In this document: positions 33,301 through 46,037 of the stretch, piece by piece
Layout of the letters: every line of letters starts with the position of its first letter
Position numbering within the stretch: the first letter of the stretch is position 1
From: an uncultured Bacilli bacterium
GTDB taxonomy: Bacteria; Bacillota_I; Bacilli_A; RF39; UBA660
Assembly: GCA_947626115.1 (NCBI GenBank)
Contig: CANQQX010000005.1
Coordinates: 1-53,431, forward strand
Length of the DNA: 53,431 bases
Direction: 5' to 3'
Position numbers and translations under genes: made by a program
The notes under the pieces: model-generated
Told to the model about the DNA's origin: nothing
The model's input: the letters and a program-made list of their open reading frames with translations, nothing else
Databases searched by the model: none

Positions 33301-36300
33301 TTGGGGTAGCAGATAATACCAAAATAAAAACTAGTCGTGTTACCAATGTACTTATAAATGCTGGTTATTATGAACAACAAAATGGTTTATTAATTGGTAA
33401 TTCAAATAATAATACTGTTGTTGAAAATTGTTATGCTGAAGGAACTATTTCTGGTGGTTATAACTATACAAGTGGATTTATAGGTAACGCTAAATCTACT
33501 ACAATGCGAAATAATTATGCTAAAGTAACTACTAGAGGTCAATCTGGTTCTGTATTTGGTTTTGCAAGTGCTTATGGTAATAACGCATCTATTTATGAAA
33601 ATAATGTAAGTATCGCAAGTAATACAAGTACAACTATGATAAGTAGTGCTAGAACTATAAATAATAACTATTTCTTCATTAATAAAGAAGCAACTAATTC
33701 AAATGGTATAACTATTATTAAAGAAGATGAAATTAATGATGATTTATTCGCAAATAGAGTTAAACTTAGTGAAGATATTTGGTATATTAAAGATGTTAAT
33801 ATAAATAATTTACCAATCTTTCAAATAGAAAAGAAATCAGTAATTAATGATAAAACAATTGAAGATTATCAAGAAAAACATGAAACATTATATAAAAATT
33901 TAATGAAATTAATGCCTTTCTTTGATGATAAAAAAATAGTAGAAACTAGTAAGAATATTCCCGAAGATAGTAATTTAGTAACTAAAACTATTAAACATAT
34001 TGTACCAGTTGATGAAAATGGTAATTTAGTTACTTATTTAACTACTGATAATCCAAAGAAAATAAAGAATATAAAAATTATATTTACTGATGGCTCTAAA
34101 GAAGAATACAAAGTTAATTATGATAAAACCTATGATATGGTAGCGTCATATAAAATTAGTGAGTTAAATATCGATTATAATTATGAGCATTATGTTATTA
34201 ATAATGATTCGCAAGTAGTAGTTAATTTAACAAATTACTTAAAAGGATTAGATTATACTAATAATTTAGATATACTAACTACTAATGCTGATTCTAGATT
34301 ATATCGTGATTTCTATAATGAAAATACTAAATATGATTTAGAAGAATTTGTCTTAAAATATTTATCTAATAGTGAATATACTAATACTTCATCAAATAGC
34401 GCAATTAATAATTATATTGAAAGTGAAGTTAAAAAAGAGCAAAAATTAGAAAAGGCTTTATATGTCTATAATTATTTAAAGAGATTCTATGATTTAGATA
34501 TTGGTGGTATGAAGTTATATGACTTTATAATGTTTAATATGAAAGGCTTTGATGAAAGTTTAACTACCGATAAAATTGTTGAATTATATTTAGGTAATGG
34601 TAGTGGGGATAATTTTAATACTAATCAAACTAATACAAGATATAATGAAGTATTAGGTAAATATACTAATTTAAATACCATACCTAAATTAGTTGAATAT
34701 TTAGTAAAAGGGTTAACTAATGCTGATTTATCAGCATGGACTCGTAGTCAAGTTAAAAGTATTTTAGTGGAAATTCCAATTGATGGACATCCAAATGTAA
34801 AATATACTTTATGGGATCATTTTATCAGTGAATCAAATGATGAGATATTAAATCAATTCTTACCAATGCTTACTTTACCAGAAGGAGCAGCTTATATAAT
34901 GTCAATGCCAGTTCAATATATAATTGGAGCGCAAAGAACATATATAGTTGATCCATCTAATCCAAGTGATGTAGAGAATTTAAAAGCGAGAATGAAAACT
35001 TATGAAACAAGAATGAAAAGATATTTTGATACTGCTTATTCAATATTAGAAGATGAAAAATTATTTAATGATATTTTAATTTATAGTGTTGATAAGAGAC
35101 TTACTAAAACAGAAACTGGTTCTGTTAGTAATACTGCTTATACAACAACTGAACCATTCCATAAAAACTTTGTCGAAGCAACTGGTTTGTGGGCGGCTGC
35201 AGCTGGAGTAAATGCTGCTGCCTGGGGTCCTCGTCTTGAATGGCAAGTAGCAGGTATTTTAGATAGTACGCTTGCTGAAGAAGGTTATAATGATACATCT
35301 CATGTTACCTTTAGAACTTGGTCACATGAATCAGCTCACCTTATTGATGCTAGATTATTCTTAAGAAATAATGGACGTCGTTTTGATGCAGGTGGCGAAG
35401 ATTATGCTGATAACTTCTTAATGCAATCATTTGATAGAAATAGTATTACAATGAATTTATCAATGATGATGGATAAAACAGCAAAAAGTGTCGAAGAAGC
35501 AACTAAAGCTAATGATGCAAAATTAGGCCCAGTAGCATCTAACCTAACACCAGAGAGAATCAATAGTCCAGAAAAGATTCATGATTTCTATCGTAAATTA
35601 TTTGAAACAGTTTATGTAATTGATTATATTGAAGCACAAGCATTCTTAAAACTTCCGGCTGATACACAAAAAGATTTAGCTATTCAAGTATCTTATCCAA
35701 ATGAAACAAAACAATTTACTAGAGTAGTTGATGAAAATGGTAAAGATACTGATCAATTTGAAGGTCCATTCTATAAAGATGATGAATTCGCTAAATATCG
35801 AGCTAGAGAAACAACTAAATATACGAGATTAAATGAATTAACTGATTTTAATACACCATTAAGAACAATGAATGATTTAATTAATAATAGAATTATGTTA
35901 TATCCTGGTGTTTATCGTTATTCATCTCGTGGTAATAATTCATATGGTGGAGAAGGAATTAATACCGTTCACTGGTATCAACCATGGAATCCAGATGGTA
36001 GACCTGATTCTTATGCTTTAAAATGGATAAGTTATGAAATGCTTGGTTGGAAGGGATATAATAATGGTTTTGTTGAATATGCAAGTAATGTTCATTATCA
36101 ACCAAATAAAATCTATTCAGATTTATCTCATCCAAAAAAAGGTACATCGACCGTAAATTATAAATCAGATAGCATGGCTTTAGCTCAAATTTCTAATAAT
36201 CGTTTCACCAACTTTAGTGATTACAAAAAATATCGCTTTAATGATATTAAAGATAAATTAGATCGCCTTGATAGTATAATTAATGTTGATGATTATATTG

Positions 36301-36554
36301 ATGCTTTTGTAGAATCGTTGCAAAAAGACGCCATTGATATTACCGAAGGAGTTCAAAGTGAACTTGATAGAGTTCCAACTTGCCCAACTGATTATTATTG
36401 TTCTCGTGGTAAATTTGCTACTTATTTATCTTATCAATATAGTACAGCATTAAGACAAGAAATATACTACAAGTTAAAAACTGAAACTAACGATTTTAGA
36501 GATGAAATTTTTAAAGATTCTACGCAACAAACTATTACTAAGTTAGCCGAATAA
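27327..36554 (+). CDS. Giant surface zinc metalloprotease (ZmpA/B/C, peptidase M26-like) with cohesin-like and dockerin-like domains
   Basis: Signal peptide, cohesin-like beta domain, two TMs, two DVNNDG Ca-binding loops, about 7 large repeats, GLUG-like motifs, and HESAH with Glu 20 residues downstream. Confidence 0.85.
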   Translation: MKEKFKYLLVFLITIILLPISVLAKESVELKIDKTDLKVGDEVKVTASVPNKMEAYAIMATLKYDKNVFQIVNDSNFTIKNDESIKYSKETNKFGIINKTGKISLNDGDTLFTVNLKVKDDANVGNTNIALTNITYTDGDKVQNLDTTSLKILVTKDAKDGEIVPANKENEIVEDEENIIKTYNNIPLIIFLGILDVIGLITILIINNKNKENNDDKKKKTIFALIALEIVLALITIILLWLNFNKTDVNNDGKKDYHDAEEIIDYLINIEGTKEKNKTNTNKYDVNNDGKVDIEDIGNTTEQIEDNTKVTLKELKEDNEYYVEKGKITLKFTAEITPKEAKITKVKIDNKYYNVELVSGVYIAIVDNKEAGVHNFVIEEVELSNGVKRKTNLKITKEVLKDRPVVDDLSHDIRTSELSFTVKDKDKALQSARITVFEGNITEEDIKNSAIQTNPDDFDNFKVVFEEELDLTKNSFTFKPKLDIGGVYTIVITGKYDLDSKIGDNNNYEEQFLNNGLNVITVGKITITPKSTDEIFLTKKTNHDYLFDVDFEPQIIAQDVKQVLIGEQYVDVTYEDGHLKLVLDDNKIAGAKNIIISAVKLEDGTDVLCHYEISYDVLKDEPTIENFVYHKKTNKITFALKDNDNAIKDANIKITNKDNKEVFAENLSLDTKDYAYNNINLKEGDTYNINIVGNYDLDSNVNNDANDGTAKYEHNLTIYNVELQNANEEEVYYTEKGEEITLKFKAIINPTNEDAKISQVTIGDGVYEPQKDENGIYSVTITAPNKAEEKKYTIRNVIMDDEDIDESLSLKVDVLKDVPTIEDLLIDESKNIPVISFTIKDPDNALDKNAIGNLVIAKDGGKTETIAIDKDFKEIALDAFADELAGSTFDLDIKANYSRHNCENASKYKEVDKKLIDTKQFKIYTATLTPESNKNFVPKNEIVEFKLKSDIKPNDGSTIKSFVLENNKVVDASKINDGSYAINLETLNVAGDKTYKIEKIILENDIEIKATANISVYVLKDIPYVNKLNLNEDNESISYELHDPDNALTSGTITITGKDDQNLTENVQKSGKATINYNFQDGESYVVKVIGSYDLDSNKENKQNSVDNKEMSLESFIVGGEYNFTLTNASITDALKPNEYPILTFKSTNTRSTFINRAELTIDGESSQYEVTKIDKDTYQIELSNVDINPGKHTVTLDKVSMNNGAKTFENTKDYKVNELTYTVLKEAPKADGLTLSVNKANKSVVANFSIIDSNNALKKLNVALVDSTGKIVSTKVLNYAEFASKDTIKVELSYNGNTDGRYTVKVLADYELAQKYFYANECIGENTVLVYSNDEIRIDRMYVVNDRNVEQVDGLFPTKMQKNYQIAVEVTIADSVKARGYGRVSGVTINGVNYPANQISGYKSKVYINVPATAGVIELTANRVQLANDGYYKIYNDYYSVPETTLKLDVLKDKPKIENLEIEEDYEKKEVTFNFDVVLDETAKSDEFTDGTITLNGVDKDIKVGPNNITFTNVDQNKTYDLIFKGTYDLDTNTFDDISNEKNKTVKGEFYRVKYGLYNDNTYETINITDAKLVSEKGNKYFEKNEKVKLQFKVSGLNENLGVLPSKVVIKDEEYNLTKLDDNYYELIIDGYSSFGEKAITITDIILDNSKKVTLTEPFTFNPEVLKDAIKINDYKYKVDDDNITINIDLDDADGAIVGFANVTVTDEKGKELYNNNYQNEIVINRADKSILRYYVKLTLDYDRDIDKGDDTANHYSDVLLLDELISLEKNNIELKDIIDINLYKYANDNNEESIKKIDEISITELKDKLDSYFVEVVMENLPAIRTKIVDVKTVQNHLILVLDYDYVTKEGGAKNNLEIDFGEIKENNKAKNEFHPETAIESLIAKLEANEPVTLNQNYDFSKIKLDRNVYIENYSSVLDGNGYTFKNLSKPLFGTLTGEVKNLNINDVTFDGNGHGALANNTNGAIIEYVLVDRVTRTSTANNPNGGLIGVADNTKIKTSRVTNVLINAGYYEQQNGLLIGNSNNNTVVENCYAEGTISGGYNYTSGFIGNAKSTTMRNNYAKVTTRGQSGSVFGFASAYGNNASIYENNVSIASNTSTTMISSARTINNNYFFINKEATNSNGITIIKEDEINDDLFANRVKLSEDIWYIKDVNINNLPIFQIEKKSVINDKTIEDYQEKHETLYKNLMKLMPFFDDKKIVETSKNIPEDSNLVTKTIKHIVPVDENGNLVTYLTTDNPKKIKNIKIIFTDGSKEEYKVNYDKTYDMVASYKISELNIDYNYEHYVINNDSQVVVNLTNYLKGLDYTNNLDILTTNADSRLYRDFYNENTKYDLEEFVLKYLSNSEYTNTSSNSAINNYIESEVKKEQKLEKALYVYNYLKRFYDLDIGGMKLYDFIMFNMKGFDESLTTDKIVELYLGNGSGDNFNTNQTNTRYNEVLGKYTNLNTIPKLVEYLVKGLTNADLSAWTRSQVKSILVEIPIDGHPNVKYTLWDHFISESNDEILNQFLPMLTLPEGAAYIMSMPVQYIIGAQRTYIVDPSNPSDVENLKARMKTYETRMKRYFDTAYSILEDEKLFNDILIYSVDKRLTKTETGSVSNTAYTTTEPFHKNFVEATGLWAAAAGVNAAAWGPRLEWQVAGILDSTLAEEGYNDTSHVTFRTWSHESAHLIDARLFLRNNGRRFDAGGEDYADNFLMQSFDRNSITMNLSMMMDKTAKSVEEATKANDAKLGPVASNLTPERINSPEKIHDFYRKLFETVYVIDYIEAQAFLKLPADTQKDLAIQVSYPNETKQFTRVVDENGKDTDQFEGPFYKDDEFAKYRARETTKYTRLNELTDFNTPLRTMNDLINNRIMLYPGVYRYSSRGNNSYGGEGINTVHWYQPWNPDGRPDSYALKWISYEMLGWKGYNNGFVEYASNVHYQPNKIYSDLSHPKKGTSTVNYKSDSMALAQISNNRFTNFSDYKKYRFNDIKDKLDRLDSIINVDDYIDAFVESLQKDAIDITEGVQSELDRVPTCPTDYYCSRGKFATYLSYQYSTALRQEIYYKLKTETNDFRDEIFKDSTQQTITKLAE

Positions 36555-36557
36555 AGC

Positions 36558-36595
36558 AAAACAGGATAATTAAAAAAATAAATTATCCTGTTTTT
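36558..36595 (+). terminator. Intrinsic terminator
   Basis: AAAACAGGATAATT / AATTATCCTGTTTT. Confidence 0.8.
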
Positions 36596-36642
36596 ATTTT
36601 CTTTTTTTAATAGCTAAATTTTTCAAAAAGATAAAAAATGTC

Positions 36643-36670
36643 TTGATTCTCGGGGGGGGTATATTATAAT
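36643..36670 (+). promoter_or_regulatory. Poly-G spacer promoter, copy 3 (G8 at 36652-36659)
   Basis: TTGATT-CTC-GGGGGGGG-TATAT-TATAAT, 16-bp spacer. Confidence 0.85.
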
Positions 36671-36756
36671 TATCTTATAATAGATAATGGTTTTATATAC
36701 ATAAATACGATATTTATGGTATAATAAAAAAGATAATAAAGAGAAAGTTATTATAG

Positions 36757-38246
36757 ATGAAGAGAGTAATAAATAATAATAATAAAATAATAATTGGTTT
36801 TATCATAGGATTACTATTTTCTATAACAACAGTATATGCAGTAGATGCCTATATTGAAAGTAATAAAGTAGCTTATACTAATCACAATAAAAATAATGTC
36901 GAAGAAGCCATAGATGAATTGTATGAAAAAAGTGGTATGCATAAAGATAAATGGGTAGATCCAATACTTAATGGAGCAGATCCTGTATTTGATAATGAAG
37001 GAAAGTTAATTCCAGTAGAAATAAAACCGAATGGTGATGTATATTATGCAAGTTTAAATAGTGAATGGTATAATTATAGTGAGAAAAGATGGGCCAATGC
37101 TGTAATATTAGTAGATAATCCAAGTAATACAAATTATCAAGTTGGAGATCACATAATAGAAGATGATATTGAAAGTTACTTTGTCTGGATACCAAGATAT
37201 CAATATAAAGTATGGGATTTAGGAAAATATAATAGTGCTCCAGATGGAAACACTTTAACAGATAAAGACTATAATTCATCAACAGCTCAAGCATTAAATA
37301 AATCAATACTAATAGATATAAAATTTGGTAACATTGACAAAGCCCTTAAAATGGTAGAGCCAAGTATAACAGGAGTATATTATACCCATCCAGCATTTAC
37401 CTTAGGAGATAAAGATTTAAATGGTTTATGGATAGGTAAATTTGAAACAGGATATAAAGGGGCAACAAGTAAAGAAACAGCTGAAGTAAATAGAGAAGAA
37501 ACTACAAGTGTCATAATAAAGCCAGATGTTTATTTGTGCGTAATATATCAGTGAAAAATATATTTATGACTTCATATAATTATGATAGAAACTTAGATAG
37601 TCATATGATAAAGAATACAGAATGGGGAGCTGCAGCTTATCTTTCCCACTCACAATATGGAATAGGAAATGAAATAAGACTTAATAACACAAGCGATTAT
37701 AAAACTGGTTATTCAGCTGCTGCCAATACTAATCAAAGTACTCGTTTAGGTACTTATGCCGAAAGTACTGATAAAACTATAACGCAACCATGGAATACGG
37801 CAACGGGCTATTTAGCGAGTACTACCGGAAATATAAGTGGTATATATGATATGTCAGGTGGTGGTTGGGAATACGTTGCTGGTTGTCTAAATGAAACAAT
37901 TGGTGCTAGTGAATTTACTATAGACGAATTAAAATACTATACTCAACTTGATTATTTAGATATATATGATAAAAATAGTTTAATTTCATCATATAATAAT
38001 AGAATATTAGGTGATGCAACAGGAGAAACGGGGCCATTTTTTAAATATAATGATGGAGATAATGGTGTAAGAACTCATAATAGTTGGTATAGTGATTGGG
38101 CCTGGTTTATTTTTGGCATCTATCCTTGGTTTGTTCGAGGTGGCGGTTACGATTCCGGTGGACTTTCTGGTGCTTTTAATTTTAGTCGTTTTGGTGGAGA
38201 AGCTTCAGAATATTTTTCATATAGAATTACTCTTGCACCAATATAA
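36757..38246 (+). pseudogene. FGE-sulfatase/CLec-like surface protein paralog 3, split by a 1-bp frameshift (or a sequencing error)
   Basis: ORFs 36757-37554 and 37536-38246 together align with paralogs 1 and 2. The conserved Trp-Arg codons TGG CGN appear as TG CGT at 37537-37541. Confidence 0.8.
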
Positions 38247-38250
38247 TTAT

Positions 38251-38589
38251 TTATATTTTGTTATTTTTTACTATACAAAAAGCAATAGCGTAATCATTAT
38301 CATAAGATAAAGATAAATTTATTGCATATTCTTCGTGATTAATGATAGAAGGAATAGGCTCCCCTAAAGAACCTTTTAATATTTCAATTTCATTAAAATC
38401 AAACTTACTATTAGTAGCTTTAATAATGGCTTCTTTAGCTGCAAATCTGGTGGCTAAAAAGTTAATTGGTTCCTTTATAGTACTCGCAATATCTAGCTCT
38501 TTTTTGGTATATACTTTTTTAATAAATGATGGATTATTATCTATCATTTTTTTAAGTCTTGGAATAAATACTATATCAGTTCCAATCAT
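38251..38589 (-). CDS. acpS: Holo-ACP synthase (phosphopantetheinyl transferase)
   Basis: IGTDIV..R, FLATRFAAKEAIIKA, G.P and LSLSY. Confidence 0.92.
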   Translation of the reverse strand: MIGTDIVFIPRLKKMIDNNPSFIKKVYTKKELDIASTIKEPINFLATRFAAKEAIIKATNSKFDFNEIEILKGSLGEPIPSIINHEEYAINLSLSYDNDYAIAFCIVKNNKI

Positions 38590-38695
38590 TTTATATCGCC
38601 TTCTTATAATTAGTATAACATTTTTTTACATAATTTTAATATTTATATTTTTAATATCTTGTAATTTGTGGTAAAATGAATAATAGGAGGATAGT

Positions 38696-38938
38696 ATGAA
38701 AGACGAAATTGAACAAAAATTAATTGAAAAGACTGCTAAAGTATTAGGAGTAGATCCATCTACATTATCTGGTAGTACTAATATTAGAACAGATATTGAT
38801 TTAAAAAGCTTAGAAATGGTAGGAATTATTTCTGAATTTGAAGAAGAATATGACTGTTATATTAAGTATACTGAATTAATGCATGCTAATACTATTAGTG
38901 AATCTGCTGAAATTATTGCAAAACAAATTGAAGGCTAA
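38696..38938 (+). CDS. Acyl carrier protein (atypical KSL motif)
   Basis: 80-aa acidic protein with DIDLKSLEMVGIISEFEEEY. Strong RBS AGGAGG. Divergent from acpS. Confidence 0.85.
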   Translation: MKDEIEQKLIEKTAKVLGVDPSTLSGSTNIRTDIDLKSLEMVGIISEFEEEYDCYIKYTELMHANTISESAEIIAKQIEG

Positions 38939-38968
38939 CTTTTAAAAGAATAGAAAGAGGGAATAAAA

Positions 38969-40780
38969 TTGAAAGAAGAAAAAAAGCCGATTGAAAACGA
39001 ATTGTCCTTACCAAAGGAAATGCCAAAAAGGGATGAAAAAATAGTTAATGTTAAATATCCTGATGGCACAAGTTGTGATGTTATTTTTACCAAAATGACT
39101 CAACCTATACCAAAAGAGGAATTTGCGAAAGTTCCAAGAGAAGAAGCAATGAATTATTGCATTGAGGTACCTGTTAATACAACAGAGTATTATGTTGATG
39201 ATGAGAAAAGAGTAATATGTCTTCAAGATAGACCAGTTAAAATGCGTGATGGTGTAACTATTTACGCTGATATTTATATTCCAACTAGTGCCTTAAAAAC
39301 ACCAGTTCCACTTATTATTAGTTGGTCATTCTTTGGTAAACAACCTTGGCATCAACCAGTCCAAATTTTTAGACCGATGGGTGTACCTACAGGTGCTGTT
39401 TCAAATGTTTGTAAATTTGAATCATCTGATCCACTATTCTGGTGTTATCAAGGATATGCTGTTGCCAATGTAGATCCAAGAGGTATTGGTAATAGTGAAG
39501 GAGACCAACAACAATTTGGTACTCAAGAAGGAAGAGATGGCTATGACTTTATTGAATGGGCTGCTAAAGAAAAATGGTGTAATGGTAAAATAGCACTATT
39601 TGGTAACTCAGGTGTTGCCATGAGTCAATGGCGTATTGCCGCTGAATGTCCACCTCACCTAGTTTGTATTGCTCCATGGGAAGCAACAGGTGATCAATAT
39701 CGTGAAAGTATTATGGAAGGTGGTATTCCTGGATTCTTTGGTGGTTCAATAGTTATTGCTGCTCAAGGAAGAGGTTATATCGATAATACAGTTGCGATGG
39801 CCAAAAAAGAACCATATGTTACTAGTCCTTATTGGCAAGATAAAATACCTCATTATGAAAAAATTAATATCCCAGTTTATACTACTTGTAACTGGAACCA
39901 TTTCCATTTAAGAGGAAGCTGGGAAGGATTTAAAAATATTAAAACTAAGAAAAAATGGATGCGTTGCCATCAAGTATTTGAATGGCCAGATACCTATAAT
40001 TCAAAATGGCTACAAGATTTAAAATTATTCTTTGATCGTTATTTAAAAGGTATCTATAACGGTTGGGAATTAACACCAAGAATTAGAATGGAAGTTATGG
40101 ATGCATTTGAATATCCATATCAAACTAATCGTCCAGAAAATGAATGGCCACTTGCAAGAACTGTTTATAAGAAATTATATTTAAATGCCAATACTCATAA
40201 ATTAGGTGATGCGCCAGTTAAAAATGCTAGTAGTGTTAGTTATGATGGGGCAACAGGTTTAACAACATTTGAATATACATTTAGAAAAGATACTGAACTT
40301 ACAGGTTATATGAAGCTTAGAATGTATGTTGAAGCTAAAGGTCATGATGATATGGATTTATTTATAACTATTAAGAAGCTATCTACTAAAGGTGAAGAAT
40401 TACCAGTAACTATCTTTGGTTCTGAACGCCATCCAGGTGCTTGGGGTAAACTTAGAGTTTCAGCAAGACACTTAGACGAAGAAAAATCTACGGAATATCA
40501 ACCAGTTCATACTCATGATAGAACTGAAAAATTAAAACCTGGTGAAATTGTTCCAGTAGATATTGAAATTTGGCCTATCTCAAGAATTTGGCATAAAGGT
40601 CAAAAATTACAACTTCAAATTGCTGGTAGATATATTCGTGATGAATGGTTTGAACCACTTGTTTGGTTCCCTGATAATAAAGGTGAACATGTTATTCATA
40701 CAGGTGGCAAATATGAATCATACTTATTAGTTCCAGTTATTCCACCTCGTTATGAAGATGGCGACTATATTTATAGATAG
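38969..40780 (+). CDS. CocE/NonD family serine hydrolase/acyltransferase
   Basis: MRDGVTIYADIYIP, DPRGIGNSEG, W.NGKIALFGNS nucleophile elbow and PepX_C-like C-domain. No signal peptide. Confidence 0.92.
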   Translation: MKEEKKPIENELSLPKEMPKRDEKIVNVKYPDGTSCDVIFTKMTQPIPKEEFAKVPREEAMNYCIEVPVNTTEYYVDDEKRVICLQDRPVKMRDGVTIYADIYIPTSALKTPVPLIISWSFFGKQPWHQPVQIFRPMGVPTGAVSNVCKFESSDPLFWCYQGYAVANVDPRGIGNSEGDQQQFGTQEGRDGYDFIEWAAKEKWCNGKIALFGNSGVAMSQWRIAAECPPHLVCIAPWEATGDQYRESIMEGGIPGFFGGSIVIAAQGRGYIDNTVAMAKKEPYVTSPYWQDKIPHYEKINIPVYTTCNWNHFHLRGSWEGFKNIKTKKKWMRCHQVFEWPDTYNSKWLQDLKLFFDRYLKGIYNGWELTPRIRMEVMDAFEYPYQTNRPENEWPLARTVYKKLYLNANTHKLGDAPVKNASSVSYDGATGLTTFEYTFRKDTELTGYMKLRMYVEAKGHDDMDLFITIKKLSTKGEELPVTIFGSERHPGAWGKLRVSARHLDEEKSTEYQPVHTHDRTEKLKPGEIVPVDIEIWPISRIWHKGQKLQLQIAGRYIRDEWFEPLVWFPDNKGEHVIHTGGKYESYLLVPVIPPRYEDGDYIYR

Positions 40781-40788
40781 GAGTAATT

Positions 40789-41835
40789 ATGGACTTAATA
40801 GAAACTGTTAAAGCTAAGGCAAAGGCTAACCCAGGAAGGGTAGCCTTTCCTGAAGCTAATGATGCGAAAATGGTTCTAGCGATAGATGAAGTTTCTAGAG
40901 AAAAATACTGTGATGTTGTAATTGTCGGTCATATTGATGAAGTAAAATCATTATGTAAAGAAAATAAAATAGATGATTCTACTTGGGAATATATTGATAC
41001 GAGTGATGAAGACTATAAAGAAAAAGTATTACAAAAATATTTACAATTACCTAATTTAGTCTATGGCGAAAAATCACTAAGAAGAAGAATGAATGAACCA
41101 TTATATTTAGCATTTATGATGGAAGCTATTGATGAAGTAGATGTCACATTTGCTGGTATTACCAGTGCAACAGGTGATATTATTTTAGCGGCTCAAACTA
41201 TCGTTGGCTTAAATAATGAACTTGAAGTAGCATCTTCTGTAGGTATAGCAGAACTTCCTAATTATACATTCCCTGATGGTGGCCATTTAATTGCCGTTGG
41301 TGATTGTGCCGTATGTACTAATCCTAGTGCATCGGAACTTGCTAGTATTGCGATAAATACTTGTGATACAATTCATGCAGTAACCGGTTGGGAACCAAGA
41401 TGTGCTTTACTTTCATATTCAACTGATGGATCTGGCAGTGGTGAGCTTGTTGAAAAAGTAAAAACTGCTGTTAAACTTGCAAAAGAGCGAAGACCAGATT
41501 TAAAAATAGATGGTGAATTTCAATTAGATGCCGCGATTGTTCCTGAAATAGCGCAAAAAAAGGTTAAAAGAGAAAGTGAAGTAGCAGGGAAGGCTAATAT
41601 ATTAATTTTTCCAGATTTAAATGCTGGTAATATAGGAGTTAAATTAATTCAACAATTTGGTGGGGCTGATGCTTATGGACCATTATTACAAGGATTTAGA
41701 AAGATTTGTAGTGATTGCTCTAGAAGTGCTCCAGTATCTGAACTTGTTGGTAATATTTTATTTTCTATTGTGCGATCAGGCGATTTAAAAACAAAAGACT
41801 TAAAATTAGGAGATTTAAAAAATGGAAAAAAATAA
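40789..41835 (+). CDS. Phosphate acyltransferase (Pta/EutD-like, divergent)
   Basis: VAFPE, DCAV..NP, LSYST.GS, DGEFQLDAA, FPDLNAGNI and GPLLQG..SDCSR. Confidence 0.9.
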   Translation: MDLIETVKAKAKANPGRVAFPEANDAKMVLAIDEVSREKYCDVVIVGHIDEVKSLCKENKIDDSTWEYIDTSDEDYKEKVLQKYLQLPNLVYGEKSLRRRMNEPLYLAFMMEAIDEVDVTFAGITSATGDIILAAQTIVGLNNELEVASSVGIAELPNYTFPDGGHLIAVGDCAVCTNPSASELASIAINTCDTIHAVTGWEPRCALLSYSTDGSGSGELVEKVKTAVKLAKERRPDLKIDGEFQLDAAIVPEIAQKKVKRESEVAGKANILIFPDLNAGNIGVKLIQQFGGADAYGPLLQGFRKICSDCSRSAPVSELVGNILFSIVRSGDLKTKDLKLGDLKNGKK

Positions 41836-42934
41836 GTTTAGAATTTTATCAATAAATCCTGGATCAACTAGTACAAAGATTGGTTTATTTGATAATGATG
41901 AATGCGTTTTTAGAGTTAATATAGAACATGAACAAGATATTTTAAAAGTTTTTAAAGAAATATCTGATCAAAGAGAATTTCGTCTTAATACTGTCTTAGA
42001 TACTTTAAAAGAAAATAATATCCCGATTGAATCTATTGATGCATTCTCAGGTCGTGGAGGTTCACTTGAATGTTGTGAAGGTGGAACTTACGAAATAAAT
42101 GAACTTATGTATAATGATGCTAAATCAATGCGAATAGTTAAACATCCTTCAGCCCTTGGTATTGTTTTAGCTTACGAACTTGCTCATAAATATAATAAAA
42201 GATGTTTCTGTGTTAATCCACCTGATGTTGATGAATTTAATATCGAAGCCAGAATTACTGGTATTCCCGGTATTTTTAGAGAAAGTAGAATCCATGCTTT
42301 AAATCAAAAAGAAATTGCTATTCGTTATTCAGAAAAAGTTAACTGTAAGTATGAAGATTTAAATTTAATCATTTGTCATGCTGGTGGTGGTATATCTATC
42401 GCTGCCCATAATCATGGTAAAATGATTGATTGTAATGATATTGTTAATGGTGATGGTCCCATGGCTCCAACTAGAAGCGGTTTTATTCCTGCTAAGCCTT
42501 TAGTTAATATGTGTTTTAGTGGAAAATATAGTGAAGCTGATATAAAAGCCTTAATTAACAAAAATGGTGGTATTTTAGCCCATTTAGGTACAGCTGATAT
42601 TAAAGAGGTTGTACAAATGATTAATGATGGCAATAAAAAAGCGCAAATTATCTATGATGCGATGATTTATCAAATTGCTAAACAAATTGGAGCAATGTAT
42701 GTAGCTTTAAAATGTAATTGTAGTGCGATAATTCTAACTGGTGGTATTGCTAATGATTCTTATTATGTCAAGAAACTAAATAAATATATTAAGAATTTAT
42801 GTAAAGTAGAAGTAATGCCAGGCGAATTTGAATTAGAAGCACTAGCTGCTGGTGCTCTAAGAGTTCTAACAAATAAAGAAAAAGTTAAAGAATATATTGG
42901 TAAACCTGTATTTAATGGTGTGATAGGAGAATAA
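41822..42934 (+). CDS. buk: Butyrate kinase
   Basis: INPGSTSTKIG, GRGG, HALNQK, H.GGGIS, GP..P.RSG, LTGG and PGE.E. Confidence 0.93.
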   Translation: MEKNKFRILSINPGSTSTKIGLFDNDECVFRVNIEHEQDILKVFKEISDQREFRLNTVLDTLKENNIPIESIDAFSGRGGSLECCEGGTYEINELMYNDAKSMRIVKHPSALGIVLAYELAHKYNKRCFCVNPPDVDEFNIEARITGIPGIFRESRIHALNQKEIAIRYSEKVNCKYEDLNLIICHAGGGISIAAHNHGKMIDCNDIVNGDGPMAPTRSGFIPAKPLVNMCFSGKYSEADIKALINKNGGILAHLGTADIKEVVQMINDGNKKAQIIYDAMIYQIAKQIGAMYVALKCNCSAIILTGGIANDSYYVKKLNKYIKNLCKVEVMPGEFELEALAAGALRVLTNKEKVKEYIGKPVFNGVIGE

Positions 42935-43380
42935 TGATGAAAAGTAAAGATATAGTTAAACAATTATTACCCGGAGTGGTAGTTGGATTTATCTTAGGTA
43001 TCATTTTAGTGTCTCTCGTTGGGGTTGATAAAGAACAATCAATTCCTAATTATATAGGTGGAGTAATGTGCTGTTTAGTACCAACTTTCCTTAACTGTTT
43101 AATAGTATTATTTGGTACTGCTAAAACTTTAAAAAGAAAAATTTCTTTTAAAGATGTCTTACTTAGAATTCTTCCTTATATCTTTTTAGCAGGACTCATT
43201 GGCTTATTTGTCGTTGCAGTAGTAGTGGAAAGATTAATTGGTATTGATCCAAGAACTATTTCCTTAATGATGACTGCTATCTATGAAGCTTTATTAGGAG
43301 TTGTAGTATCTACCATTTTTGCTTATATTGCTTTAAAAAAATATGCTAAAGATGTTAAATATACAAAAAGAAATAAATAA
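42934..43380 (+). CDS. Four-TM membrane protein
   Basis: Four hydrophobic stretches. Translationally coupled to buk (TAATG). Confidence 0.8.
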   Translation: MMKSKDIVKQLLPGVVVGFILGIILVSLVGVDKEQSIPNYIGGVMCCLVPTFLNCLIVLFGTAKTLKRKISFKDVLLRILPYIFLAGLIGLFVVAVVVERLIGIDPRTISLMMTAIYEALLGVVVSTIFAYIALKKYAKDVKYTKRNK

Positions 43381-43388
43381 AAGATAAT

Positions 43389-43430
43389 AAAAAATAAAAT
43401 GTGTAGTAAGATATACATTTTATTTTTTTT
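43389..43430 (+). terminator. Terminator closing the ACP-buk operon
   Basis: AAAAAATAAAATGTGT / ATACATTTTATTTTTT plus T-run. Confidence 0.65.
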
Positions 43431-43491
43431 ATGTACTTATATTCGACAAATTTTACTTATAATTTATGATAATCTGTTAATGGTGATGAAA

Positions 43492-43683
43492 ATGAATAAA
43501 AAAACAAGTGAATTTTTAGAAGAAATAACTGATAATTTTAGTACTCTTTTTGTGGAGACATTTTATCTTCGTTATTTAGATCAATTTGGCGAAGAAAATA
43601 TTTTAAAAGATATCAATTATACTAAAGATATGCTTTTAAAAAAGATTGATGAAAAAATTCAACAAAAATTAGAAAGCAAATAA
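43492..43683 (+). CDS. Small hypothetical protein
   Basis: 3' part of ORF 43399-43683. Start chosen after GGTGA, because the longer start overlaps a terminator. Confidence 0.55.
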   Translation: MNKKTSEFLEEITDNFSTLFVETFYLRYLDQFGEENILKDINYTKDMLLKKIDEKIQQKLESK

Positions 43684-43701
43684 AAAAAGGAGTTAAACTC
43701 C

Positions 43702-43896
43702 TTAGTTATTAAAGTTATTATTATTACCAGTAAACCAACCAGCACCTATTATAATAACTAATAAAATAAATAGAACAATCCAAATGGCTGCACCTATACC
43801 ATAGCCACTTGTGTAACCAGCATAGCCAGCGCCACCATAACAAGGAGTACTAGCATAGTTACCACCATAGTAACCATTATTTCCGTAATAATACAT
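43702..43896 (-). CDS. YjcZ/SscA-family small Gly/Tyr-rich membrane protein
   Basis: GY-rich N-terminus followed by IVLFILLVIIIGA. RBS AAGGAGG. Confidence 0.8.
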   Translation of the reverse strand: MYYYGNNGYYGGNYASTPCYGGAGYAGYTSGYGIGAAIWIVLFILLVIIIGAGWFTGNNNNFNN

Positions 43897-44017
43897 ATTA
43901 TACCTCCTTTATGTATCTATTATATTTTATTAATCTTAGTCACATTTTGACATTAAAAAATTAATATTTATTTTGTATAATTTCATTTTGTGATATGATT
44001 ATTATAGGATTGGTATT

Positions 44018-45184
44018 ATGAAGAATAAATTTGCCAAAATGGATAAACCTTTATTAATTTTAACCATACTTCTTTGTAGTATGGGTCTTATTATGGTTTT
44101 TTCTTCCTCTATGGCTGCAGCTATTCTTCGTTATAATAAAGAACCAACTTACTTTTTTATAAGACAACTTATCTTTTTAGGATTAGCTTTTGGTGGGGGA
44201 ATTATAGTCTTACAAATACCAACTAAATATTATAAAACCTTATCATATTTTTTCGTAATAGGTATTATAGTAGTTTTAACTTTGCTACTTTTTTATGGTA
44301 AACTTACCAATCATGCCCAGAGTTGGTTTTATATACCGGGAACAGGATTTGCCATTCAACCATCAGAATTTGCCAAATCAGCTATTATTATTTTTATGGC
44401 CGTATTTTATAATATATTAATTAAAAGAAAAGTTTCCAATGTTTATTTATATTTAATTCCTTTATTTATTGTAGGAATAATTGCTTTACTTATTTTAATG
44501 CAACCAGACTTTGGTAGTGCTGCTATACTAGTAGCCATAGCATTTTGTATATTTATAAGTGTGCCAATTGCAAAAAGTAATTTACCTAAGATTATGTTAA
44601 TACTGGGTATTGGCGCTATCATTTTAGGAGTTGCCCTTTTATATAGTGGAGCCGAGATATTAAATAGTGAACAAATGAAAAGATTTAATTTCCAAAACCC
44701 TTGTCAAAGATATAAAGAAGATACGGGATACCAAGTATGTAATGGCTATATTGCTATTAATAATGGTGGTCTTACTGGCGTAGGTATGGGTAATAGTACC
44801 CAAAAATTCTTATATTTACCCGAAAGTCATACTGATTTTATCTTTGCAGTTTTAGTTGAAGAATTAGGCCTTCTTACTGGTATTGGTGTTTTACTCGTTT
44901 ATGCTTTACTTTTGTATCGGATTTTAAAAATAGCAAAAAATGCTTATAACTTACGAAATTCTATTTTAGCTTATGGTACATTTTGGTTAATTGCGTTTCA
45001 TATCATTATTAATTTGTGTGGTATGCTATCTATTTTACCTTTAACGGGTGTACCACTTCCATTCTTAAGCTATGGTGGATCATCAACTATTAACTTCGTG
45101 GCCATGATTTTTGTAACAGAACGAGTAGCCATTGAAAATAATGATACAAAATATCGCTTAGAAATGAAAAAATTAGCAAAATAA
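44018..45184 (+). CDS. FtsW/RodA/SpoVE family SEDS protein
   Basis: QPSEFAK, QPDFG, LPESHTDFIF..EELG and TGVPLPFLSYGGSS. Confidence 0.95.
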   Translation: MKNKFAKMDKPLLILTILLCSMGLIMVFSSSMAAAILRYNKEPTYFFIRQLIFLGLAFGGGIIVLQIPTKYYKTLSYFFVIGIIVVLTLLLFYGKLTNHAQSWFYIPGTGFAIQPSEFAKSAIIIFMAVFYNILIKRKVSNVYLYLIPLFIVGIIALLILMQPDFGSAAILVAIAFCIFISVPIAKSNLPKIMLILGIGAIILGVALLYSGAEILNSEQMKRFNFQNPCQRYKEDTGYQVCNGYIAINNGGLTGVGMGNSTQKFLYLPESHTDFIFAVLVEELGLLTGIGVLLVYALLLYRILKIAKNAYNLRNSILAYGTFWLIAFHIIINLCGMLSILPLTGVPLPFLSYGGSSTINFVAMIFVTERVAIENNDTKYRLEMKKLAK

Positions 45185-45224
45185 GCTAGTTTTTTTATTT
45201 TTTTGTGAAAATTTTCTTTAAAAA

Positions 45225-45253
45225 AAAGGAAATCGGCCTCTGAGTGACAAATA
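45225..45253 (+). promoter_or_regulatory. Sigma-H-like promoter upstream of comEA
   Basis: AAAGGAAAT-12 bp-GACAAATA, one mismatch from the B. subtilis SigH consensus RnAGGAwWW / RnnGAAT. Confidence 0.45.
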
Positions 45254-45275
45254 ATATAAGTGAAAGGAGGTTTTT

Positions 45276-46037
45276 ATGGATTTTTTTGATTTTGTCAAAA
45301 CTAATAAATTTATCATTCTATTTATTAGTATTATAGCAAACATTATTTTACTCGGGTTATCAGGATATTTATTATATGAAAATCTAAATTATACTTGTGA
45401 TTGTCCGATAAATAATGATATTTCTAAAACAGAAGAAAAAGATGATTCTAAGACAAATATGTTTGTGGAAGTAAAAGGTGCAGTTTCTAAACCAGGTGTC
45501 TTTGCAGTTAAAAGTGATAATATCATTAATGATGTCATCAAACTTGCGGGTGGATTTACGAAAGATGCTTATACTAATAATATTAATTTAAGTCGTAAAG
45601 TATCTGATGAACTAGTTGTCTATGTTTATACCAATGCTGATATGAAAAAGAAAACTCAAGTAAGTGAAACAGTATGTAACTGTAGTAGTTATGATATCAG
45701 TAATTGCACTGAAAACAAGCAAAGTGAAATAGTTGCAAGTACTACCGATAGTAATGTTTCAATAAGTTCTAGTTCTAGTAGTAGTTCATCAAGTTCTTCT
45801 AGTACAACCAATAATACTAATAAAAATAGTACATCTAATCAAAAAAAGATAATTAATATTAATACGGCATCAAAATCAGAATTAACTTCTCTTAGTGGTA
45901 TTGGGGAAGCTAAAGCCGAAGATATTATTAATTATCGTACACAAAATGGTAATTTTAAAAGTATTGACGATATAAAAAATGTCAAAGGTATCGGTGATGC
46001 AATTTTTGCCAAAATTAAAGACTATATTACAGTCTAA
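45276..46037 (+). CDS. comEA: Competence DNA receptor ComEA
   Basis: TM, SLBB domain (VEVKGAVSKPGV), poly-Ser linker and HhH (ININTAS..L..LSGIGEAKA..II.YR). Confidence 0.93.
   Translation: MDFFDFVKTNKFIILFISIIANIILLGLSGYLLYENLNYTCDCPINNDISKTEEKDDSKTNMFVEVKGAVSKPGVFAVKSDNIINDVIKLAGGFTKDAYTNNINLSRKVSDELVVYVYTNADMKKKTQVSETVCNCSSYDISNCTENKQSEIVASTTDSNVSISSSSSSSSSSSSSTTNNTNKNSTSNQKKIININTASKSELTSLSGIGEAKAEDIINYRTQNGNFKSIDDIKNVKGIGDAIFAKIKDYITV

Follow-up and report, generated by a model that had tools for sequence, protein, structure and literature searches.

The window analysed here is a stretch of 53,431 nucleotides from an uncultured Bacilli bacterium, and six of its genes, acpS, ACP, CocE/NonD, Pta-like, Buk and one for a 148-aa protein, were found as open reading frames at the positions below, in agreement with an earlier note on this DNA.

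38251..38589, minus strand: acpS, holo-ACP synthase, 112 aa (PF01648 58.2 bits, cut-off 25; TIGR00516 64.9, cut-off 59.8)
38590..38695, no strand: divergent intergenic region, 106 nt, which includes the ribosome site for ACP (AGGAGG)
38696..38938, plus strand: dedicated acyl carrier protein, 80 aa (PF00550 30.6, cut-off 20.8)
38969..40780, plus strand: CocE/NonD (S15) serine hydrolase, 603 aa, cytoplasmic (TIGR00976 193.7, cut-off 66.3; PF02129 107.6 bits; PF08530 122.8 bits)
40789..41835, plus strand: Pta-like phosphate acyltransferase, 348 aa (PF01515 284.9 bits)
41822..42934, plus strand: butyrate kinase family acyl-phosphate kinase (Buk), 370 aa (TIGR02707 418.2, cut-off 289.1; NF002834 438, cut-off 222)
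42934..43380, plus strand: 148-aa protein with four hydrophobic segments, without Pfam or NCBIfam family
43384..43432, plus strand: AU-rich terminator-like hairpin at the operon end (-16.1 kcal/mol, z -5.0)

The five plus-strand genes are separated by gaps of 30 and 8 nt and then overlap by 14 nt (Pta-like and Buk) and 1 nt, and the CocE/NonD gene has a TTG start with an AGAGGG ribosome site upstream. When positions 43381-43440 were folded, none of 200 shuffles was as stable as the hairpin at 43384-43432; a consensus terminator scan found nothing after 43380, because it demands G+C pairs and the hairpin is AU-rich. One promoter-like site lies on the minus strand of the divergent intergenic region (38639-38612), where such sites are no commoner than in shuffles. 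The coordinates, family models and hairpin thus bear out the layout proposed in the earlier note, a divergent acpS and five tightly packed genes closed by a terminator, and the four hydrophobic segments agree with its reading of the last gene as a 4-TM protein. It had also reported no fab, PKS, NRPS or adenylation gene nearby, and we found none among the open reading frames of 35000-47000; the genome has no ketoacyl-synthase match, and both of its AMP-binding genes are on other contigs.

The host is a rabbit-gut bacterium with a genome of 1.27 Mb, 93% complete. Its single ACP, single AcpS (the only 4'-phosphopantetheinyl transferase found) and single Pta are all in the module locus, and the module CocE is its only S15 gene. 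Searches of this genome found no FASII, ketoacyl synthase, PlsX (PF02504), PlsY or DegV, the PF02504 search giving matches in 9 of 14 known genomes used as control. Two AckA genes and three PlsC-type acyltransferases are present.

Carrier protein, hydrolase and a separate phosphate acyltransferase

The window AcpS passed both the family and the equivalog-domain models of AcpS-type phosphopantetheinyl transferases, and in larger module-bearing genomes, which have 2-5 AcpS genes, one of these adjoins the module Pta. The ACP belongs to the PP-binding carriers (PF00550), but it stayed below all of the AcpP equivalog cut-offs (TIGR00517, for instance, gave 27.8 vs 70.45) and has neither the Asp-Ser-Leu motif nor the FASII context of AcpP. 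Its attachment motif is Lys37-Ser38 instead of Asp-Ser, and K37 and S38 are invariant in all 18 aligned module ACPs.

The CocE/NonD assignment rests on an alpha/beta-hydrolase with a C-terminal PepX_C domain, a TIGR00976 score above cut-off and Foldseek top matches that are CocE/NonD structures. G212-N-S214 and H313 do not vary among the 24 sequences aligned, and Ser214 and His313 align with those of 3ib3; D272 and D291 are candidates for the triad acid (model pLDDT 74). The closest solved structure is SACOL2612 of Staphylococcus aureus (3ib3/3iii; profile E-value to 3ib3 7e-126), which has no assigned function. It shares the S15 fold and the PepX_C domain with the window protein, as do cocaine esterase CocE and the alpha-amino-acid ester hydrolases, although these last two are only 14-19% identical to it. 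We know of none of the three that works with an ACP. The 148-aa membrane protein, specific to the small-genome clade, gave no Pfam or NCBIfam hits and no useful Atlas neighbour; it may serve substrate import or product export.

The Pta-like protein fell under both pta equivalog cut-offs (TIGR00651, 256.4 vs 311.2; NF007233, 269.9 vs 310) and far under that of the Ptb model (66.5 vs 410.5), so that only the superfamily model PF01515 was reached. Larger genomes carry a high-scoring Pta (about 370-460 bits) together with a module-type Pta (about 285-350 bits), and the tree splits 10 housekeeping from 38 module Ptas with 100/100 support; the Pta-like protein is a separate paralogue class. Catalytic Ser309 and Arg310 (numbering of M. 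thermophila MtPta) correspond to Ser311 and Arg312 of the window protein and are kept in 29/29 module and 10/10 housekeeping Ptas. MtPta Arg133, an arginine in all 10 housekeeping Ptas, is hydrophobic in all 29 module Ptas and Leu in the window protein, although 7 of the 29 have a basic residue one column further on. The ELR(K/Q) motif that includes MtPta Arg87 is found in 10/10 housekeeping and 0/29 module Ptas; in the window protein Arg87 aligns with Pro88, and Asp316 is replaced by Glu.

In the P. gingivalis Pta crystal, acetyl-CoA is bound at the Arg87/Arg133 site, and mutations of these residues chiefly change Km (PMC6461089). According to the same account, neither is essential for catalysis in PgPta (PMC6461089). 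Their loss is no proof of CoA exclusion. Even so, the module enzyme appears from these residue changes to be adapted to a thiol other than CoA, and the loss of Arg133 throughout the 29 module Ptas lends support to the earlier prediction of a non-CoA thiol.

A complex of the window Pta and ACP was predicted with a score of 0.54, against 0.01 for the best of 3 controls, with 100% contact agreement between runs and partner pLDDT of at least 87. Among solved complexes 58 of 80 attain the docking mark, as do 2 of 110 mismatched pairs, but scores of 0.60 or less with the mark reached occur only in 7 of the 80 solved complexes and in both passing mismatches, and the predicted docking is a weak pointer to interaction. 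Buk passed the butyrate kinase equivalog models TIGR02707 and NF002834, but the partner of a butyrate kinase, a Ptb acting on butyryl-CoA, is absent: the genome has no Ptb, and its sole PTA_PTB gene is the module one.

Conservation and genomic surroundings of the module

A search based on CocE gave 311 relatives, from which 80 loci were kept, 34 close and 46 distant. Among the close loci, tblastn found Pta in 33, Buk in 31, ACP in 30, the membrane protein in 29 and AcpS in 23, every miss of the first four (including the 5 of the membrane protein) being at a contig end. Among the distant loci, tblastn found Pta in 28, Buk in 29 and AcpS in 24, ORF clustering found ACP in 27, and at least one module partner stands beside CocE in 37. 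The taxa involved include small-genome Bacilli, Clostridia, Thermodesulfobacteriota (Desulfobacterota-type) and 'delta proteobacteria', Dehalococcoidia and Chloroflexia (Chloroflexi-type), Parolsenella and Erysipelotrichaceae. Small genomes keep the six genes linked in flanks that vary between loci, some genomes hold several copies, and the module is sporadic, with 3 carriers in a sample of 201 genomes from the order.

Since the module recurs across phyla, the arrangement is far beyond chance, and AcpS, ACP, CocE, Pta-like, Buk and the membrane protein form one real, conserved unit. The earlier reading of the genes as a single functional unit is thereby upheld by the neighbourhood search, which finds AcpS, ACP, CocE, Pta-like and Buk together across phyla. 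That the genes are chance neighbours, with ACP and AcpS serving lipid scavenging, Pta working with the two acetate kinases, Buk yielding butyrate and CocE unrelated, is close to refuted. The two AckA genes without a second Pta fit this explanation, as do the three PlsC-type acyltransferases and two AMP-binding enzymes as potential ACP users; against it, several phyla carry the set complete with an AcpS and a Pta paralogue specific to it, and in this paralogue the CoA-site arginine is lost. Furthermore, out of 22 genomes from the same family 18 lack Pta altogether, and among the other 4, module-type Pta is found exactly in the 2 with a CocE gene.

At least one flavonoid or phloroglucinol catabolic gene was found in 35 of the 46 distant loci, the other 11 having no polyphenol gene within about 8 kb. 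The marker genes counted were a flavone reductase homologue, an OYE-type flavanone-cleaving/enoate reductase, C-glycoside deglycosidase alpha and beta, and the phloroglucinol set of PMC10470551, which comprises SDR, 3HCDH, cyclase and BKACE. The flavone reductase homologue matched PDB 7d38 (E 7e-37), a flavone reductase (PMC7862272), and the deglycosidase alpha matched PDB 7bvr and others. Outside the host's phylum the module thus belongs to catabolic gene clusters of an inducible kind, and it is often accompanied by MFS transporters and by regulators of the TetR or PucR type. Two Chloroflexi-type loci have an AMP-forming ligase after CocE, and in 14 distant loci a fumarate/urocanate-reductase-like flavoprotein and an Nfn/Stn-like iron-sulfur pair lie within or adjoin the module. 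No acceptor-making gene stands beside the module in any of the 80 loci.

A sister version was found around further module-type Ptas: in 5 of 9 regions sampled, a thiolase-like protein (428-439 aa) and a DUF35 protein accompany ACP, Pta and Buk in place of CocE, with AcpS in 3 of the 5. PDB relatives of this pair, absent from the window, are acetyl-CoA acetyltransferase, benzoylsuccinyl-CoA thiolase, archaeal thiolase/DUF35 and PhlC/PhlB, the similarity to PhlC being weak (E 4e-13, C-terminal part only). The thiolase/DUF35 family includes enzymes of thiolytic C-C cleavage, in which retro-Claisen cleavage gives a thioester, and by analogy this version would fit cleavage better than ester synthesis.

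Direction and substrate of the proposed relay

We propose, as a reading with about an even chance of being right, that the module is a self-contained carrier-protein route to ATP by substrate-level phosphorylation, from acyl donor through acyl-ACP and acyl-phosphate. An acyl-ACP-dependent, ATP-forming relay is suggested by synteny, by the residue changes in Pta and by the weak docking score; each chemical step, the direction and the substrate we infer. AcpS would convert the apo carrier to holo-ACP, and cytoplasmic CocE would attack an energy-rich acyl donor to give an acyl-serine, the acyl group then passing to the pantetheine thiol of ACP and not to water. Phosphorolysis of acyl-S-ACP by the Pta-like paralogue, with its CoA-site arginine lost, would yield acyl-phosphate and free ACP, and Buk would put the phosphate onto ADP, giving ATP and the free acid, with the small membrane protein putatively transporting substrate or product. 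No published description of the AcpS/ACP/CocE/Pta-like/Buk/membrane set was found by full-text literature search, in line with the earlier statement that no pathway with this gene set was described.

The earlier note had preferred the opposite direction, in which Buk and the Pta-like enzyme load a free acid on ACP and CocE builds an ester or amide. This is not favoured by the catabolic neighbours, the lack of acceptor-making or biosynthetic genes, and the thiolase/DUF35 version. As an explanation in which ATP is spent on a short acid and CocE acylates an alcohol or amine, so that a lipid, a wall polymer or a small molecule would be acylated independently of CoA, it seems unlikely to us. Buk/Ptb do run toward the thioester in Listeria primer supply, the alpha-amino-acid ester hydrolases of the CocE family, fold neighbours of the window protein, are good acyltransferases, acyl groups must be scavenged in a genome without FASII, and elsewhere in the genus, clusters of glycosyltransferase and acyltransferase genes make use of an ACP together with an adenylating enzyme. 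However, an acceptor-making gene is found in 0 of 80 loci, the module keeps company with catabolic enzymes, importers and regulators of the TetR or PucR type, the sister version better suits cleavage, and a distribution of 3 in 201 genomes of the order is unlike that of a housekeeping envelope function. The note's reverse route, from ester to acyl-ACP, acyl-phosphate and ATP, probably fits better in its direction, but 'ester' is probably too narrow and thermodynamically doubtful.

Activation for catabolism, in which a phenolic acid is loaded on ACP at ATP cost, reduced or processed as ACP thioester and released by CocE as thioesterase, we consider quite unlikely. The flavoprotein and Nfn/Stn-like pair of the 14 distant loci speak for it, and in many cases, caffeate respiration among them, an enoate must be a thioester to be reduced; yet solved relatives of the companion reductase use free carboxylates, and small genomes, that of the host included, have none of the companion flavoprotein/iron-sulfur reductases, so that the scheme there would be a futile, ATP-burning cycle.

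For the ATP-forming relay, the donor is most likely a breakdown product of plant polyphenols, and as a first guess we would name an acyl-phloroglucinol, for instance phloretin, which is a dihydrochalcone, or a related intermediate from the fission of flavonoid rings. The substrate link for the host's own CocE rests on its 56-61% identity to CocE proteins of other phyla, and this identity, along with over 200 positions that are invariant, speaks for substrates of a similar class in all of them. By a rough estimate, an ordinary ester would be too low in energy to pay for ATP, and an acyl-phloroglucinol would be a borderline case as long as phloroglucinol is not drawn off, for which no route was found in the host genome. 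The ligase after CocE in the two Chloroflexi-type loci would be odd if the free acid were the end product.

That the relay runs as proposed but in the host on a donor not derived from flavonoids is rather unlikely. Such a donor would be another activated acyl compound that a herbivore gut offers: an aryl ester or depside (tannins), an acyl-glucuronide or 1-O-acyl sugar, an enol-lactone, or an acyl-phloroglucinol with a short chain. Tblastn found no flavonoid or phloroglucinol gene in the host genome, the flanks of the cassette are unrelated from one small genome to the next, the nearest solved folds (CocE, alpha-amino-acid ester hydrolase, feruloyl or acetyl esterases) all act on esters, Buk-family enzymes are known for short aliphatic acids and not for arylpropionates, and multiple copies per genome suggest several substrates. 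Against this stand the CocE identity across phyla and the tie of the CocE class to flavonoid and phloroglucinol genes in 35 of 46 distant loci. The tannin link is without support, since the molybdopterin enzyme beside CocE in two loci, considered as pyrogallol transhydroxylase, is no close relative of it.

The proposed relay resembles Ptb-Buk and Pta-AckA in that a PTA_PTB transacylase adjoins an acetate/butyrate-kinase-family enzyme, with thioester passing to acyl-phosphate and ATP. It differs in its thiol carrier, which is apparently not CoA but a dedicated ACP served by an AcpS of the module, and in its transacylase, which lacks Arg133 and forms a separate clade. The source of the thioester would differ too, being a front end of the hydrolase or thiolase-like type instead of an oxidative or CoA-transferase step. 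To our knowledge PlsX is the one enzyme known to interconvert acyl-ACP and acyl-phosphate, and with the carboxylic-acid kinase FakA/FakB it links ACP, acyl-phosphate and ATP; the likeness is in working and not in family, as PlsX (PF02504) and DegV are absent here, and PlsX is not catabolic and serves long-chain lipid synthesis. In glycine reductase protein C, a protein-bound acyl thioester likewise gives acyl-phosphate and, via a kinase, ATP, but the proteins are unrelated, and a Cys thioester is formed there by reduction where a hydrolase-loaded pantetheine arm is proposed here. PhlACB, an acyl-phloroglucinol acyltransferase and, like BbsAB and the archaeal complexes, a thiolase/DUF35 complex, needs no CoA to transfer acyl groups to phloroglucinol or to take them off again.

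In the flavonoid pathway of FLR, CHI/FCR, enoate reductase and Phy, phloretin hydrolase (Phy), a member of the DAPG-hydrolase family, is the step that frees phloroglucinol and an acid (PMC11572103, PMC10470551). Its genomic neighbours, FLR, an OYE-type reductase and phloroglucinol genes, are like those of the module, but the CocE fold is unrelated, and Phy hydrolysis wastes bond energy that the module would save. If the donor is an acyl-phloroglucinol, the module would be an energy-saving alternative to plain hydrolysis by Phy. PF18089 (Phy) has no match in the host genome and matches at E <= 0.001 in 8 of 34 CocE-carrying genomes, 6 of them strong; 3 genomes (G005, G006, G010) have a strong match together with module genes, so the module is no simple Phy replacement. 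Cleavage of a flavonol-derived hydroxyaurone, for which the enzyme column is blank in a review table (PMC11572103), is a further candidate for the reaction that the module may serve.

Layout and conservation of the module

The earlier note had claimed six clustered genes at 38251-43380, and the ORF list together with Pfam and NCBIfam scans bears this out.

Genes of the module in the window
38251-38589, minus strand: acpS
38696-38938, plus strand: small carrier protein (ACP)
38969-40780, plus strand: CocE/NonD (S15) hydrolase of 603 aa, TTG start with a good upstream ribosome site
40789-41835, plus strand: PTA_PTB-family (Pta-like) enzyme, under both curated pta cut-offs
41822-42934, plus strand: butyrate kinase (Buk), far over the equivalog cut-off
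42934-43380, plus strand: 148-aa transmembrane (TM) protein with four hydrophobic segments, without family

The five plus-strand genes are separated by gaps of 30 and 8 nt and then overlap by 14 and 1 nt, and the terminator that had also been proposed was recovered as an AU-rich hairpin at 43384-43432 immediately 3' of the operon (-16.1 kcal/mol, z -5.0), which a G+C-based terminator scan did not pick up. The G+C content of the module is 0.32, versus mostly 0.20-0.29 in the window, and promoter-like sites show no enrichment (29 observed versus 35.9 expected from shuffles). The TM protein matched no family, its nearest Atlas clusters being unnamed (top score 0.90, with recognition under the useful mark), and it is unlike the 228-aa membrane protein found 3' of Buk in two of the related loci (L054 and L077).

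Several neighboring ORFs were recorded in passing. A 3075-aa ORF at 27327-36554, which takes up a sixth of the window and has a signal-like segment at the N terminus and long stretches of Ig-like repeats, probably encodes a giant surface protein. At 36757-38246, overlapping ORFs of 265 aa and 236 aa in different frames, the latter with a weak, below-cut-off FGE-sulfatase-like match, may be a single frameshifted gene or two genes. Beyond the operon, the listed start of a 94-aa ORF (43399) falls within the terminator hairpin, thus its true start is probably at about 43483, and the minus strand at 43702-43896 codes for a Gly/Tyr-rich peptide of 64 aa that ends in a hydrophobic tail; no family was matched by either ORF (43399-43896), and the 94-aa ORF had no match among 80 related loci.

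A CocE protein search with one genome per species returned 311 relatives, of which the best 80 loci were kept and searched for partner genes by tblastn with the window proteins. In 34 close loci, mainly from uncultured small-genome Bacilli and with CocE identity of 79-99%, the partner found most often was Pta (33 loci), ahead of Buk (31), ACP (30), the TM protein (29) and AcpS (23), and every missing Pta, Buk, ACP or TM gene falls at a contig end. The six genes move as a block in these small genomes and the flanks vary between loci. Among the 46 distant loci (CocE identity 56-61%), tblastn detected Buk in 29, Pta in 28 and AcpS in 24, and ORF clustering placed an ACP in 27; these counts are lower bounds, since longer antisense ORFs mask some of the genes and a number of contigs are short. 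Recurrence of the gene set, which the earlier note had proposed to check by neighborhood search, was thus found, with at least one partner gene in 37 of the 46 distant loci. The module is real and conserved, and chance adjacency of its genes is close to refuted, with hardly any probability left to it.

By record title, carriers include Clostridia, Thermodesulfobacteriota, 'delta proteobacteria', Dehalococcoidia, Chloroflexia, Parolsenella, Erysipelotrichaceae and Defluviitaleaceae, the named Clostridia being Anaerobium acetethylicum, Clostridium caldaquaticum, Anaerobacterium chartisolvens and Mediterraneibacter glycyrrhizinilyticus. In the window's own order the CocE gene occurs in 3 of 201 sampled genomes, all of one genus, and the module is thus an accessory cassette rather than a lineage trait. 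No description of this gene set was found in the full-text literature, subscription journals and supplementary files being outside reach, and the accessible portions of PMC10470551 and PMC7862272 do not mention ACP. The module seems so far undescribed and its wiring new.

A dedicated carrier protein and a divergent Pta-like enzyme

The host genome (1.27 Mb, 93% complete; the window is its contig C5) encodes a single PP-binding protein, a single AcpS and a single PTA_PTB gene, all three in the module locus, and the CocE gene is its sole S15 gene. Whole-genome family searches did not find ketoacyl synthase, PlsX, PlsY or DegV/FakB, thus the module ACP does not serve fatty-acid synthesis. Elsewhere, the genome carries two acetate kinases, three PlsC-type acyltransferases and two AMP-binding enzymes. 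One AMP-binding enzyme lies immediately 5' of a PlsC-type acyltransferase on another contig (C2:53824-55955, loci L008 and L010), and this pair might make membrane lipids from scavenged fatty acids, borrowing the sole ACP. The window stretch or close relatives of it occur in public sequencing runs annotated as rabbit gut metagenome and as gut metagenome. In an RNA-library run (X13), short contigs of relatives cover the ACP-CocE junction, CocE, Pta and Buk; such contigs are no proof of transcription, and the library may contain DNA. The lack of cover over acpS and the TM gene carries no weight.

In module ACPs Lys-Ser is invariant where fatty-acid ACPs have Asp-Ser (18 of 18 aligned, picked from 28). 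The CocE proteins are highly conserved: over 200 alignment columns, including G212-N-S214 and His313, are identical in all 24 sequences selected for their diversity. Among solved structures S. aureus SACOL2612 (3ib3, 3iii), which comes from structural genomics and has no assigned function, is closest, followed by cocaine esterase and alpha-amino-acid ester hydrolases at 14-19% identity to the window CocE; the CocE model is of moderate quality (pLDDT 74.1, pTM 0.62), with the catalytic Asp not placed.

The larger genomes in the set of 34 CocE carriers encode a Pta scoring about 370-460 bits plus at least one copy at about 285-350 bits, the lower-scoring copies being those inside the module, and they carry 2-5 AcpS genes each, one of which adjoins the module Pta. 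A tree of 48 Ptas (29 module and 10 housekeeping sequences from module-bearing genomes and 9 from further loci, with the truncated module ORF of L079 excluded) separates 10 housekeeping from 38 module Ptas with split support of 100/100. Among 22 genomes of the window's own family, any Pta was found in four, of the module type in the two with CocE and canonical in two others; the Pta of the window is thus not the routine partner of its acetate kinases.

Alignment of the window Pta to the M. thermophila enzyme (1qzt), with comparison of the 29 module and 10 housekeeping sequences, showed that Ser309 and Arg310 are conserved in all 39. Arg133, in contrast, is Arg in 10/10 housekeeping Ptas and Leu, Ile, Phe, Met or Tyr in 29/29 module Ptas, and the ELR(K/Q) motif with Arg87 is present in all 10 housekeeping and none of the 29 module Ptas, seven of which have a basic residue one column past the Arg87 position. 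Asp316 is replaced by Glu in every module Pta. According to the accessible part of one study, Ser309 and Arg310 control kcat, Arg87 and Arg133 are non-essential for catalysis and chiefly affect Km, and a P. gingivalis crystal holds acetyl-CoA at this second (Arg87/Arg133) site (PMC6461089). Judged from the residues, the module pattern fits a thiol substrate without the nucleotide moiety found in CoA, for instance the pantetheine arm that an ACP carries. A predicted Pta-ACP complex scored 0.54 versus 0.01 for the best of three controls; among solved complexes 58 of 80 reach the mark, versus 2 of 110 among mismatched pairs, and scores of 0.60 or less include just 7 of the 80 plus both passing mismatches. 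The runs agree in 100% of contacts, with partner pLDDT of at least 87, and the model lends weak support to a Pta-ACP interaction.

Catabolic companions and a thiolase/DUF35 sister module

When the ORFs of the distant loci were clustered and cluster representatives annotated, at least one flavonoid or phloroglucinol family was present in 35 of the 46. A 321-aa FMN protein recurs in 16 loci, its sole solved relative being 7d38 (E 7e-37), and 7D38-7D3B are structures of the flavone reductase FLR (PMC7862272, in part). C-glycoside deglycosidase alpha (12 loci; solved relatives 7bvr, 7exz and DgpC) and beta (PF19906; 11 loci), an OYE plus pyridine-nucleotide-disulphide reductase of the enoate or flavanone-cleaving type (8 loci) and GFO-type oxidoreductases also recur, together with an SDR reductase, a 'cyclase' cyclohydrolase, a 3-hydroxyacyl-CoA-dehydrogenase-like enzyme and a BKACE lyase, the four families of anaerobic phloroglucinol degradation in the accessible part of PMC10470551. 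Further recurrent companions are an Nfn/Stn-like iron-sulfur flavoprotein pair, a fumarate/urocanate-reductase-like flavoprotein, TetR or PucR regulators and MFS transporters. This context points to phloroglucinol-releasing compounds as substrates.

Three side observations concern these loci. A 707-aa protein with NuoG-like iron-sulfur domains fused to a GltD/NfnB-like flavoprotein and a NuoF-like 398-aa partner, found in 14 and 11 polyphenol loci, respectively (examples at L048:11740-13860 and L045:14403-15599), may form an Stn/Nfn-type transhydrogenase supplying NADPH for phloroglucinol reduction. In two Chloroflexi-type loci (L073:9884-10852 and L075:8737-10332), an AMP-forming acyl ligase lies immediately 3' of CocE, which is awkward for a free acid as the end product and may mark further aromatic-acid degradation. 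A link to tannins, considered for an 869-aa molybdopterin enzyme beside CocE (L060, L090) that is pyrogallol transhydroxylase-like in size, was dropped because ArrA and thiosulfate reductase are the solved proteins to which it is most closely related.

Of nine regions fetched because they surround other module-type Pta genes, three proved to be extra CocE-type modules and one has Pta and AcpS adjoining FLR and two of the flavoproteins. The remaining five are without a CocE gene and encode in its place a thiolase-like protein (Thiolase_C_1) of 428-439 aa and a DUF35 protein of 137-148 aa that consists of a zinc ribbon plus an OB fold.

Sister modules (coordinates local to each fetched locus)
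L107:5985-10200
L108:8849-11978
L109:8421-11426
L110:2556-6140
L112:5957-9154

In these Lachnospiraceae and Clostridium genomes, an ACP gene comes immediately after the thiolase/DUF35 pair, and Pta and Buk come next. Three of the five loci also encode AcpS close by, two have FLR in the vicinity, and the five loci's Ptas form one clade within the module Ptas. Solved relatives of the pair are acetyl-CoA acetyltransferase, benzoylsuccinyl-CoA thiolase and the archaeal thiolase/DUF35 complex, and PhlC and PhlB are weak relatives. With two front ends seen, ACP, Pta, Buk and usually AcpS constitute a common back end. Both front-end types putatively work through a covalent acyl-enzyme, and as retro-Claisen cleavage by a thiolase gives a thioester, the sister module points to the direction from cleavage to ATP.

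Proposed relay, substrates and rival readings

The most likely mechanism, which is plausible, is a relay in which the cleaving enzyme would acylate holo-ACP, the Pta-like enzyme would turn acyl-ACP into acyl-phosphate and Buk would form ATP from it. The relay resembles known chemistry: PlsX acts on acyl-ACP plus phosphate, Ptb-Buk provides the kinase step, and glycine reductase performs phosphorolysis of a protein-bound thioester. The fuller reading, in which CocE or thiolase/DUF35 as interchangeable front ends would cut the acyl group from a plant polyphenol intermediate (e.g. an acyl-phloroglucinol) onto a private ACP, and Buk with a Pta paralogue whose CoA site is partly lost would convert it to ATP, as a modular, CoA-free route that stands alone in genome-reduced Bacilli, is tentative, at somewhat below even chances; such gut Bacilli would in part make their living from a single bond in a compound set free by other community members.

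The earlier note had favored the biosynthetic direction, with Buk and Pta loading a free acid onto ACP and CocE passing it to an acceptor. No acceptor genes are in the company and the companions are catabolic, and we consider this direction improbable. Slightly less probable still is a scheme in which an acid is activated and reduced while bound to ACP and CocE serves as thioesterase; in the small genomes this would amount to a futile cycle. The cleavage-to-ATP relay remains preferred.

The obvious candidate step is the one performed by phloretin hydrolase (Phy), whose model PF18089 matched at E <= 0.001 in 8 of the 34 CocE-carrying genomes, six of them strongly. Phy is present in three genomes with module genes; a Phy match taken to lie inside L054 was rejected, G005:C3 being another contig, with a histidine kinase and a solute-binding protein as end ORFs (Pfam). 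A second candidate is cleavage of flavonol-derived hydroxyaurone, for which the enzyme column is blank in the review table seen of PMC11572103.

The host genome itself had no PF18089 match, and tblastn found none of the flavonoid or phloroglucinol families there. On a rough thermodynamic estimate, cleavage of an ordinary ester does not yield enough energy for ATP, acyl-phloroglucinol-type aryl ketones are borderline and beta-diketones would suffice. The thermodynamic weakness is real for the host genome, which cannot remove phloroglucinol, and another activated acyl donor in this organism is unlikely, if the least so among the rival readings.

If true, the relay would be a new kind of substrate-level phosphorylation in which an ACP is catabolic and energy-conserving, with ATP earned at cleavage steps that textbooks call plain hydrolysis. 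It would alter the energy balance assumed when flavonoids and polyphenols are degraded anaerobically in guts, peat and sediments, make the module a candidate for steps still without an enzyme, such as hydroxyaurone cleavage, and assign a function to a widespread CocE/NonD subfamily with SACOL2612 as its solved member. It could also account for energy gain from plant secondary compounds in bacteria whose genomes measure 1.2-1.3 Mb. As the system consists of five soluble proteins, it is directly testable in vitro.

Members of the genus without the CocE gene have an AcpS just 37% identical to that of the window. Two of their loci (L105:871-5769 and L102:622-5587) encode an AMP-binding enzyme, ACP, AcpS, two GT8 glycosyltransferases and an acyltransferase, which probably acylate a surface glycan or lipid; this is a different ACP system and has no bearing on the module locus. 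One of its AcpS copies is read through a TAG.
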